In this document: one piece after another, positions 21,037 to 21,582 of the stretch
Numbering within the stretch: position 1 is the first letter of the stretch
How the letters are laid out: each line of letters begins with the position of its first letter
Assembly: GCA_964187785.1 (NCBI GenBank)
Contig: OZ076409.1
Location: 744,001-808,000, forward strand
From: Amphiscolops sp. MND2022
Lineage: Eukaryota
Reading direction: 5' to 3'
DNA: 64,000 nt
The notes under the pieces: model-generated
What the model saw: the letters and a program-made list of their open reading frames with translations, nothing else
Database searches by the model: none
Told to the model about the DNA's origin: nothing
Position numbers and translations under genes: made by a program

Positions 21037-21582
21037 TCATGGGCTCAGCTTCCTCAAGGCATTGAACATAGCCTCAACGAACATACCCGAATCCACCTTT
21101 TTGTTGCTCAGTACTAAGGCAGCATGAAATCCGGCCAGCTCAAGAATTAGTTTCGGCAAAGGACGAGCATTTATTGAAAAAATGAAAGGCTGTAATTCAA
21201 CCGTTATGTTACCAGCTTCGCCAATTACAGTCCTTGTTAGAGATCGATTCGGAGTATACTCCCTAATTCGGAAAACGGACAGTTTTGCATTTTTGGTAGC
21301 CCCACGAATGGCCGCTGTAGTTGTCCTGGCACATCGGCTCCCGAGTCCGAGCAGACCGTTCCTGTCTGCTATCGCTACTCATGCTTTTCGTCGGTATTGC
21401 CCATCACCGATTGAACTCGTTTTAAGTATTTCTACATGAAGACCATTAGGTATTAAATGGTCGATAATTTCAGGCTCTTTGATTTGAAGTTTTTGACTCA
21501 GTATCTGCTCCAGGTTGAGTTCTCCCCTCTTCACCTTGCGGCCTATAGGAGTCTTCGGTTTCCATGTTGAAACAACAGACAT
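21037..21582 (-). pseudogene. Divergent 40S ribosomal protein uS5 (eukaryotic RPS2) homologue with one internal TGA at 21381-21379
   Basis: MSVVSTWKPKTPIGRKVKRGELNLEQILSQKLQIKEPEIIDHLIPNGLHVEILK...RRKA*VAIADRNGLLGLGSRCARTTTAAIRGATKNAKLSVF...TVIGEAGNITVELQP...ARPLPKLILELAGF...GMFVEAMFNALRK. Collinear with uS5 motifs W.P.TKLGRLVK, IKE.EIID, KAFVAIGD.NG.VGLG.KC, AIRGA...AKLS, P.PKKLL..AG, NF.KATF.A. Confidence 0.88.

Follow-up and report, generated by a model that had tools for sequence, protein, structure and literature searches.

A uS5 (RPS2)-like gene carried by Polintons of Amphiscolops sp. MND2022 and disrupted in the copy described here

The minus-strand frame at positions 21,582 to 21,037 of the window (the 64,000-nucleotide stretch of Amphiscolops sp. 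MND2022 contig OZ076409.1 analyzed here) is very probably a copy of a genuine Polinton gene, which is intronless and encodes a basic, "core-only" paralogue of the ribosomal protein uS5 (RPS2). The same judgment covers the history of the gene: its lineage goes far back, purifying selection has maintained it, and element backbones have traded it as a module. The window copy itself is broken by a single, recent nonsense change.

The Polinton that contains the frame is 17,953 bp long. A repeat search and reading of the sequence revealed that it is bounded by 42-nt terminal inverted repeats (plus-strand positions 4532–4573 pairing with minus-strand positions 22,443–22,484; 81% complementary), and that an identical 6-bp word, the target-site duplication, abuts the outer side of both repeats (positions 4526–4531 and 22,485–22,490). 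The inverted repeats and the matching flanks are together far beyond chance expectation, in agreement with the preliminary description, which had placed the frame between the target duplications of a Polinton. The left repeat is followed by a G run, and a long G run lies on the inner side of the right repeat. The plus strand carries an A32-like packaging ATPase (positions 7128–7886; Pfam Pox_A32 (PF04665), E = 4e-5, 23.6 bits, cut-off 22.8), a retroviral-type (rve) integrase (positions 8621–9604; Pfam rve (PF00665), E = 3.2e-12, 47.1 bits), a putative minor capsid (penton) protein (positions 9591–10,214; assigned by position, 88–91% conserved in other elements), a putative major capsid protein (positions 10,806–12,134; assigned by position and size, 92–98% identical in most other elements that hold it), and a putative maturation protease (positions 12,131–12,556; assigned by position, mostly 75–94% identical elsewhere and 57–64% in distant backbones). 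These genes are followed by a putative protein-primed family B DNA polymerase (pPolB) with an N-terminal C2H2 zinc finger (positions 14,110–18,477; 1455-aa open frame). The pPolB, the genes at the capsid positions, and the protease had no significant match in Pfam profile and PDB sequence searches. The pPolB had an atlas feature score of 0.97 to clusters in which 38–44% of the members carry PF03175 (DNA_pol_B_2), and its frame contains segments, recognized by eye, that we take to be polymerase motifs B and C. The integrase, the ATPase, the terminal inverted repeats, and the 6-bp duplication are Polinton hallmarks. An 84-bp tandem array of 21.3 copies (positions 18,806–20,597; TRF score 2373), which is common to many other elements, separates pPolB from the uS5-like gene. 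The latter (positions 21,037–21,582, minus strand) is the rightmost gene, adjoins the terminal repeat, and is convergent with pPolB. Reading of the sequence around it revealed neither a poly(A) tract nor a target duplication of its own.

Translation confirmed the previously described frame of 181 codons, which is interrupted by one in-frame TGA at codon 68 (positions 21,381–21,379) and ends in a terminal TGA. Two Pfam profiles had been proposed as a check of its identity. Ribosomal_S5 (PF00333) recognized the frame (E = 4.5e-9, 36.6 bits, cut-off 27.1), but Ribosomal_S5_C (PF03719) fell below its cut-off (E = 0.0018, 18.1 bits, cut-off 21.5). A phmmer search against PDB chains returned 116 sequences at E ≤ 0.01, the best of which (E = 6.4e-21) covered query residues 6–178, and the best 60 of the 116 were uS5/S2/S5 small-subunit chains except for one unnamed entry. 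The frame thus follows eukaryotic uS5 along its length, as had been claimed. Comparison with the host RPS2 of the same genome bore out three further statements of the preliminary description: (i) the protein is highly diverged, with 38% identity over 168 residues (about 34–38% for the Polinton protein); (ii) the RG-rich N-terminal arm is absent; and (iii) the hairpin loop is remodeled. It is also 5 residues shorter. An atlas search with the uS5-like protein returned archaeal uS5 clusters only, with scores of 0.88–0.89, which are below the level counted as more than a lead.

Each of the 4 near copies of the window element has the uS5-like gene at the same position. The column of the window TGA, for which a comparison with sister copies had been suggested, is a sense codon in each of these 4. 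The whole frame is intact in only 1 of the 5 copies; the window copy has the stop, and the other 3 carry frame-breaking indels. The frame had been described as preserved, which does not hold for the window copy, where the TGA is a real break private to that copy. The window gene and its C8 counterpart differ by 10 bases, with 95.6% protein identity. Most of the differences among the near copies are replacement changes, which indicates that recent copies decay neutrally, as expected after insertion. Among 18 family frames checked, 10 end in TGA at the conserved C-terminus.

The gene is widespread among the Polintons sampled in this genome. A PF00333 scan revealed at least 150 matches, all over the cut-off (150 were scored among 347 first-look candidates). 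Two of them, at 107.6 bits, are host RPS2 with the RG arm, and the remaining scored matches have 34–52 bits. Frames of at least 170 codons hold 120 of the 150 scored matches, a stop lies inside the match in 7 of the 150, and the majority of the non-host matches are open frames of about 180–290 codons. Of the 91 pPolB matches scored among those listed, 55 lie no more than 12 kb from an S5 match, and in all 55 of these pairs the two genes are convergent, with S5 lying 2.3–5.9 kb downstream. A convergent uS5-like frame was also present in each of 6 further pPolB loci (5 whole and 1 split) that were fetched from the 36 without a scored S5 match. Conversely, the ten-kb flanks examined around 20 of the 150 S5 matches contained pPolB together with protease or capsid genes in 17 cases. 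The surroundings of 18 family genes showed no common pattern of promoter or poly(A) words.

The place and strand of the uS5-like gene are constant in backbones whose pPolB is 46–100% identical to that of the window element, and the gene behaves as a swapped module: backbones about 89–96% identical carry uS5 proteins that are only 29–49% identical. Backbone homology between the window element and several others ends near 18.8 kb, just short of the 84-bp array, and in elements L020 and L022 a match to its left terminal repeat is also present immediately past the uS5 gene. Searches beyond this genome returned 32 pattern matches on IMG/VR viral contigs, with no relative among them, and 27 loci on JGI metagenome contigs (26–51% identity, some contigs longer than 100 kb), which look like ordinary cellular uS5.

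The subfamilies are 36–65% identical to each other. Between them, the synonymous proportion exceeds 0.74 and dN ranges from 0.17 to 0.75; for L012 and L037, dN is 0.167 with saturated synonymous sites. In 55 pairs of 11 class A representatives, identity at codon positions 1, 2, and 3 was 0.56, 0.65, and 0.32, respectively, with chance at about 0.25–0.28. Third positions are therefore saturated while first and second positions are kept, which reveals purifying selection on the uS5-like protein. In a tree that included host RPS2, as had been proposed, class A forms a single clade (support 97/94) apart from host and other eukaryotic uS5. All Polinton forms lie on long branches outside the sampled canonical uS5 clade, and the join of classes B and C is flagged as a possible long-branch artifact. 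No donor of the gene could be named from this tree of sampled canonical uS5.

We designate the three forms of the protein classes A, B, and C; each scores best against eukaryotic cytosolic uS5. All three lack the RG-rich N-terminal arm and the eukaryotic N-terminal extension with its FxxxFG chaperone motif, which host RPS2 retains, and the trimming otherwise differs by form. Class A, to which the window copy belongs, has lost 5 hairpin residues, the G of the loop motif, the G/W loop, and the APRGTG loop, and it retains the eukaryote/archaea-type N-terminal helical segment; classes B and C have lost this segment and keep the canonical hairpin and the APRGTG loop. The remodeled class A hairpin has invariant residues of its own in the alignment. 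Canonical eukaryotic uS5 has 26 invariant alignment columns, and of the cells in these columns only 63% are retained in class A, 45% in class B, and 54% in class C. The segment common to the three classes, and the best conserved, is the S5 N-domain core, consisting of a G-rich strand-turn and the next helix. The AlphaFold2 model of class A (pLDDT 88.1, pTM 0.81) shows a predicted two-domain uS5 fold, and the top 50 PDB matches of a Foldseek search with this model were all uS5 chains in ribosomes (TMq 0.85–0.89), although the model may lean towards the ribosome-bound shape owing to the exposure of AlphaFold2 to many uS5 structures. The model obtained for class B is of low quality (pLDDT 49, confident only at residues 81–140); most of the database relatives of class B carry a precomputed PF03719 match. 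The protein is basic throughout, with a pI of 9.3–10.3 and a net charge of +6 to +18 in all 25 Polinton-type rows. Loss of K54/K58-type ubiquitylation sites was considered as a general feature and dropped, because some class A members retain a lysine 2 residues before the conserved W.

Two readings would deprive the window frame, or the whole family, of the status given above. If the window TGA were read through or recoded, the window copy would be intact, and the frame indeed contains no other stop. This is hardly credible and was rejected, because the near copies have an ordinary sense codon in that column and family frames, including the window frame itself, use TGA as a normal terminator. 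A processed host RPS2 pseudogene that landed in one Polinton and was passively copied without function would account for an intronless gene, for the stop and indels in the near copies, and for the replacement changes that predominate among recent copies. Yet the gene lacks a poly(A) tract and a target duplication of its own, occurs at constant place and strand in diverse backbones, lies mostly in long open frames, has class-specific invariant motifs and kept first and second codon positions, and forms in class A a clade separate from the host gene. Recent amplification of a single copy is excluded by the saturated synonymous sites, and the pseudogene reading, which we consider very improbable, was rejected. 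The earlier view that the frame evolved as a selected element gene rather than as a decayed processed pseudogene is thus upheld by its presence in 4 of 4 near copies, the at least 150 S5 matches, the convergent arrangement in 55 of 55 pairs, and the codon-position signature. Of the findings that had been named as refuting that view, absence from sister copies, an own poly(A) tract or target duplication, and neutral evolution, the opposite was observed in each case, for evolution in the comparisons between subfamilies.

What the protein does is less firmly indicated. We tentatively suggest, with somewhat less than even confidence, that it mimics the globular, ribosome-embedded part of uS5 and acts where uS5 sits in the 40S subunit or in the precursor of that subunit. 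There, on the mRNA entry side of the 40S or pre-40S particle, it would dock in the uS5 site or compete for it; because the N-terminal extension is missing, it would escape the chaperone and methylation control exerted through that extension; and the altered entry-channel hairpin would shift translation or 40S supply in favor of the element. Against such a mimic, the 36–65% identity between subfamilies looks loose for a protein fitted to a conserved rRNA pocket, and more like that of a host-interaction or anti-defense gene. The loss of different canonical elements in different forms, the Ribosomal_S5_C score below cut-off, and the poor class B model were also counted against it. A close rival, possible but somewhat doubtful, is a putative RNA-binding protein acting off the ribosome, which would bind double-stranded RNA of the element or host, or the nucleic acid of the element in its particle. 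Transcripts of pPolB and uS5, which converge, could for example supply such RNA, and its binding would blunt RNA-based silencing or sensing. The basic charge of all forms, the N-domain core as their shared and best-kept part, the convergence with pPolB in every case seen, and the deep allelic diversity exchanged among near-identical backbones are all consistent with this rival; such swapped diversity is expected of host-interaction or anti-defense genes. By contrast, the class A model has the whole two-domain uS5 architecture, and its N-terminal helical segment makes sense only beside the rest of uS5. The protein might instead be a decoy that titrates a host protein recognizing the globular core of uS5 and thereby changes 40S production or surveillance; candidate targets would be an import factor, PDCD2/PDCD2L, PRMT3, ZNF277, or a quality-control ligase. 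The loose conservation across forms suits the binding of a single partner better than full ribosomal duty, and uS5 is unusually rich in conserved non-ribosomal partners according to the available part of a uS5 review. The same part of the review, however, describes the N-terminal extension as the PDCD2/Tsr4 and PRMT3 region, which suffices to bind Tsr4 of yeast, bears the FxxxFG motif, and is methylated by PRMT3; this extension is missing in all three classes and kept in host RPS2. The decoy is therefore improbable, and the partners named in the preliminary description, PRMT3 and PDCD2/Tsr4, have lost ground in particular.

The 40S mimic can be extended to a proposal that we regard as possible but somewhat doubtful: the Polintons of this animal lineage may routinely encode a minimal uS5 of their own that enters the 40S subunit in place of the host protein, giving element-specific ribosomes with a remodeled mRNA entry channel. 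A Polinton uS5 incorporated in this way would lack the handles by which chaperone, methylation, and quality control act on the N-terminal arm of the host protein, and the module-swapped diversity would then be the record of an arms race with host ribosome surveillance. If true, the Polinton/adenovirus-like virus realm would have its first ribosomal-protein gene, and ribosome specialization a natural experiment. A Polinton appears to have acquired a core component of the mRNA entry channel, which was cut to its ribosome-embedded part, kept by selection, and diversified into many shuffled lineages. These lineages form a natural set of uS5 variants with which to ask whether a mobile element tunes the ribosome, and what the individual parts of uS5 are required for.

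Compared with eukaryotic cytosolic uS5 (RPS2), the Polinton protein shares a predicted two-domain S5 fold (a dsRBD-like N-domain and the S5 C-domain), the basic character, and, in class A, the helical segment. It differs in that (i) the RG-rich disordered N-terminal extension and the C-terminal tail are missing; (ii) the class A hairpin is shortened and remodeled and two loops are gone, whereas the other forms are trimmed otherwise; and (iii) its gene belongs to a mobile element and exists in more than 100 diverged copies. Processed RPS2 pseudogenes are likewise intronless ribosomal-protein coding copies away from the host locus, but the Polinton gene lacks both a poly(A) tract and a private target duplication, is under purifying selection, and has a fixed place inside the element. 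An animal genome with many Ribosomal_S5-domain genes has been reported in the hadal sea cucumber, for which the available text of PMC9700323 describes an "expansion of RPS2" (10 genes with this domain versus at most 2 elsewhere) and reads it as host adaptation; the words "Polinton" and "Maverick" are absent from its main text, and we treat the likeness as a lead only. Genome annotations that show "expansions" of RPS2 or of other housekeeping genes may be counting cargo of Polintons and not an adaptation of the host.

Ribosomal proteins encoded by phages and viruses are described in the available text of Mizuno et al. 2019 (PMC6375957), and eL40 of giant viruses is presented, in the available text of PMC11499249, as the first ribosomal protein of a eukaryotic virus; uS5 is absent from the main text of the latter. 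As in these cases, a virus-like element encodes a relative of a core ribosomal protein that presumably came from a host. Here the gene is carried by a Polinton and kept by selection, and its product is heavily trimmed and occurs in several forms. Full-text literature searches, in which some papers were represented by title and the start of the abstract, returned, among the papers listed, no printed report of a ribosomal-protein accessory gene in Polintons and no paper combining "Polinton" with "uS5", and an adintovirus paper on horizontal gene transfer uses "ribosomal" only for frameshifting; these results agree with the earlier statement, in which such genes are not known to have been described in Polintons. 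The element itself shares with Polintons/Mavericks and adintoviruses a putative pPolB, the rve integrase, the A32-like ATPase, the capsid-gene positions, the inverted repeats, and the 6-bp duplication, and, as in those with lineage-specific accessory genes, its accessory gene lies near one end.

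The minus-strand frame at window positions 21582–21037 comprises 181 sense positions and a terminal TGA, and is interrupted by a single in-frame TGA at codon 68 (positions 21381–21379). With an X at the break, the frame matched Ribosomal_S5 at 36.6 bits (Pfam cut-off 27.1) and Ribosomal_S5_C at a sub-threshold 18.1 bits (Pfam cut-off 21.5). A phmmer search of all PDB chains with this frame returned 116 sequences at E ≤ 0.01, the best 60 of which were, except for one unnamed entry, uS5/S2/S5 small-subunit chains; the best match (E = 6.4e-21) covered query residues 6–178. The translation and these Pfam and PDB matches confirm the frame, the single stop and the whole-length likeness to eukaryotic uS5 that the preliminary description had reported.

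The uS5-like gene lies in a Polinton of 17,953 bp, which is bounded by a 42-nt inverted repeat pair (4532–4573 and 22443–22484, 81% complementary) and by an identical 6-bp word flanking both terminal repeats on their outer sides. The plus strand of the element carries an rve integrase (Pfam 47.1 bits), an A32-like ATPase (23.6 bits, cut-off 22.8) and three frames assigned, by order and size only, as putative penton, major capsid protein and protease. A plus-strand frame of 1455 codons with an N-terminal C2H2 finger (14110–18477) had no Pfam match and no PDB sequence match; comparison with Atlas clusters gave a feature score of 0.97, with DNA_pol_B_2 in 38–44% of the cluster members, and what we presume to be polymerase motifs B and C are recognizable by eye. 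We take this frame as the protein-primed family B DNA polymerase (pPolB). It is followed by an 84-bp tandem array (21.3 copies, 18806–20597), the uS5-like gene in the opposite orientation and the right terminal repeat; thus, the uS5-like gene comes last in the element and is convergent with pPolB. G runs are located directly inside both terminal repeats (about 7 G at 4574–4581 and more than 20 G at 22420–22442). To the right of the Polinton, positions 23633–34953 contain a cluster of plus-strand frames, 3 of which have SET-domain matches (28232–29470, E = 1.7e-10; 31272–32210, E = 7e-10; 23633–24166, weak), and positions 44019–53852 contain LTR retrotransposon pieces, namely an integrase with an H2C2 zinc finger (44019–44543, minus strand) and a reverse transcriptase with RNase H (51651–53852, plus strand).

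When positions 20900–21700 were compared at the DNA level with the genome to which the window belongs (1.07 Gb), 4 further copies of the uS5-like gene region were recovered, with identities of 98, 94, 87 and 79%. All 4 have a sense codon in alignment with the window's stop at 21381–21379. The copy on contig C8 is free of indels and retains the full 181-codon frame, with a convergent pPolB match 4.4 kb away; the other 3 copies have frame-breaking indels, and 2 of them have pPolB, protease and capsid gene remnants in their flanks. The four-copy alignment therefore identifies the window stop as a private, recent break in a gene that is not missing from sister copies, and neither a poly(A) tract nor a separate target duplication was found around the window gene. 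These results agree with the earlier proposal of a Polinton gene rather than a processed pseudogene: the window copy is dead, but the family to which it belongs is live.

When the genome was scanned in six frames with PF00333 (Ribosomal_S5), the best 150 of 347 first-look candidates were scored, and all 150 exceeded the Pfam cut-off. Two matches at 107.6 bits are the host RPS2 with the RG-rich N-terminal arm (L006, G000:C5:874121, and L007, C5:66370840, in the same genome), both open over about 200 codons and intron-free in that part; the remaining scored matches ranged from 34 to 52 bits. Frames of at least 170 codons were found in 120 of the 150 and of at least 150 codons in 130, with a stop within the matched stretch in 7. 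With part of the pPolB of the window as query, the best 91 of 4041 candidates were scored and had protein identities of 80–100%; many lie within open frames about 1470 codons long, which points to a Polinton population that is very large and in part young.

Coordinate comparison of the listed matches placed an S5 match within 12 kb of 55 of the 91 pPolB matches, in every case on the opposite strand and 2.3–5.9 kb downstream of the pPolB query start. For the 36 pPolB matches without an S5 neighbor among the matches listed, the downstream 4.5 kb of the best-scoring 6 was examined, and all 6 have a convergent uS5-like frame (5 whole, 1 split). Conversely, the ten-kilobase flanks of 20 S5 matches contain pPolB together with protease or capsid genes in 17 cases, 16 of them in the usual order of capsid, protease, pPolB and then, on the other strand, the uS5-like gene; the 3 deviating flanks are 2 stretches of one tandem array and 1 probable host locus. 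The pPolBs of uS5-carrying elements are 46–100% identical to that of the window. On the basis of the coordinate pairing, the 6 checked loci and the flanks, the uS5-like gene is a regular constituent of the Polintons that were sampled here. The preliminary observation is thus real and broader than first noted, with at least 150 S5 matches and all 55 pPolB pairs convergent.

Several loci depart from this arrangement. At L036 (G000:C3:27736756–27746755), a truncated frame of the window type is found upstream of the integrase, penton, capsid, protease and pPolB genes and shares their strand; given this departure from the convergent arrangement, the locus is probably a junction of 2 elements or a rearrangement. 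L024 and L025 (G000:C7:42171019–42189874) form a tandem duplication of at least 6 class-B frames (described below) within about 19 kb, each followed by an 84-bp-type minisatellite, with pPolB, capsid and integrase genes absent there; the array looks like amplified Polinton right-end fragments or a host-side array. Two further clusters, 4 S5 matches on one strand at a spacing of about 2.7 kb (G000:C6:51322380–51330566) and 3 on one strand within 5 kb (G000:C3:58050865–58056046), are possibly similar arrays. L026 (G000:C1:86397584–86407583, 44.8 bits), whose sequence is unlike the 3 Polinton classes and which has no Polinton gene within the surrounding 10 kb, may be an exon of a host gene with an S5 domain, for example a mitoribosomal one.

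The Polinton proteins fall into 3 trimmed forms, all of which have eukaryotic cytosolic uS5 as best PDB matches and lack the RG-rich extension. Class A, the window type (for example L002, L010, L012, L014, L016, L020, L030, L035 and L037), keeps the helical segment that eukaryotic and archaeal proteins carry before the S5 domain; besides the RG-rich arm, it has lost 5 hairpin residues, 6–11 residues of the inter-domain loop, part of the APRGTG loop and the C-terminal tail. Class B (for example L015, L022, L024 and L028) keeps the hairpin and the APRGTG loop and has a serine-rich stretch in place of the lost N-terminal segment. Class C (for example L019) keeps the loops and has a short N-terminus, most of which is lost. 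At the 26 columns invariant among 13 eukaryotic canonical rows, class A keeps 63%, class B 45% and class C 54% of the cells, and the losses are complementary. The shortened hairpin of class A carries invariant residues peculiar to that class, and class B likewise has an invariant set of its own; these class-specific residues identify the changes as remodeling, not decay.

AlphaFold2 modeling of the class-A alignment, with the intact C8 copy as first row, gave a pLDDT of 88.1 and a pTM of 0.81, although the prediction may owe something to the many uS5 structures known to AlphaFold2. Its best 50 Foldseek PDB matches are all uS5 chains within ribosomes (TMq 0.85–0.89, RMSD 2.0–3.3 Å). The class-B model was poor (pLDDT 49), confident only at residues 81–140 (S5 N-domain) and disordered-looking at residues 1–75. 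All 25 Polinton-type rows are basic (pI 9.3–10.3, net charge +6 to +18). A uS5 tree (38 rows, 197 columns; near-duplicates L011, L017, L018, L031 and the second L024 copy, broken copies, and L038–L043 left out) grouped class A (97/94) and class B (100/99) each as one clade. Canonical eukaryotic uS5, including that of the host, forms one side of the tree (85/83), and the Polinton forms fall outside it on long branches; the joining of classes B and C is a potential long-branch artefact. One old capture followed by differential trimming, or several separate captures, are possible origins.

Nei–Gojobori counts between class-A subfamilies showed saturated synonymous proportions (>0.74) and dN of 0.17–0.75; the least diverged pair, L012 and L037, has 77% protein identity and a dN of 0.167. 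Identities at codon positions 1, 2 and 3 were 0.56, 0.65 and 0.32 against a chance level of 0.25–0.28 (55 pairs, 11 subfamily representatives). Such a pattern marks long-term purifying selection on the uS5-like protein, in line with the selection that the preliminary description had proposed. Within subfamilies, the ratios range from 0.2 to 1.2 on only 2–16 changes, and the differences between the window and C8 copies are mostly replacement changes, which is expected from neutral decay of inserted copies and is no argument against selection on the active lineage.

Seven elements (L020, L029–L032, L035 and L037) have backbones 89–96% nucleotide-identical to that of the window from about 11–12 kb to 18.8 kb, and no nucleotide homology to window positions 20650–22484 except for a 96-nt stretch in L037. 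Protein identities to the window are 94.0% for pPolB and 41.6% for the uS5-like protein in L031, 94.1 and 39.9% in L035, 90.6 and 48.9% in L037, and 87–92 and 29% in L022, which has a class-B gene; most capsid-position proteins are 92–98% identical. Since similar backbones carry dissimilar uS5 genes, either the uS5 lineages are much older than the present backbones or the backbones are homogenized while uS5 alleles stay apart. In L020 and L022, a match to the window's left terminal repeat directly follows the uS5 gene, so the exchanged unit comprises the uS5-like gene and the region upstream of it, with the tandem array on one side and the terminal repeat on the other. Related arrays occupy the same place in many other elements, and the array may be the joint for this exchange, because backbone homology stops near 18.8 kb, directly before it.

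The element encodes a basic protein of the uS5 fold that is under selection. According to a uS5 review, human uS5 begins with a disordered, RG-rich extension of 56 residues, which is methylated by PRMT3 and gripped by PDCD2/Tsr4 (in yeast, 42 residues apparently suffice for binding), and the ordered rest contacts 18S rRNA, eS21, uS2, uS8, uS4 and uS3. The beginning of class A coincides with that of the ordered part of uS5; on the simplest reading, the element would retain the part that fits the ribosome and drop the handles for cellular escort and marking. We therefore tentatively favor a putative mimic that would occupy, or compete for, the uS5 site on the 40S or pre-40S subunit, with the remodeled hairpin at the mRNA entry channel. 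The loose uS5-like conservation, the loss of different contact elements in the 3 forms and the arms-race-like shuffling of uS5 alleles count against such a mimic, and this counter-evidence fits about as well with a putative off-ribosome RNA binder or anti-defence protein, a reading that we consider only slightly less likely than the mimic. A putative decoy for partners of the uS5 core is improbable, and one acting through the N-terminal extension would not be expected.

A profile of 9 class-A proteins gave 16 matches at E ≤ 1e-30 among 1.84 billion representatives, of which about 14 are short Polinton-type proteins (118–219 aa, 142–305 bits), with canonical uS5 next at about 120 bits. Of the Polinton-type clusters, 8 were looked up and all originate from ENA assemblies (one from Logan as well); word-based searches with classes A and B gave the same distribution picture. 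IMG/VR contained no relatives, and the JGI metagenomes only distant, ordinary-looking uS5. Among the papers listed, as judged by titles and opening lines of abstracts, the Polinton/Maverick literature yielded no ribosomal-protein or uS5 gene, the closest adintovirus paper mentions "ribosomal" for frameshifting only, and nothing relevant was found for Polintons and ctenophores. As far as this search reaches, a uS5 gene in Polintons is undescribed. In the abstract of another paper, eL40 is called the first ribosomal protein in a eukaryotic virus (PMC11499249). A hadal sea cucumber genome is described as having 10 RPS2 copies compared with at most 2 elsewhere, read as a deep-sea adaptation (PMC9700323); in light of the window, these copies could be Polinton cargo.
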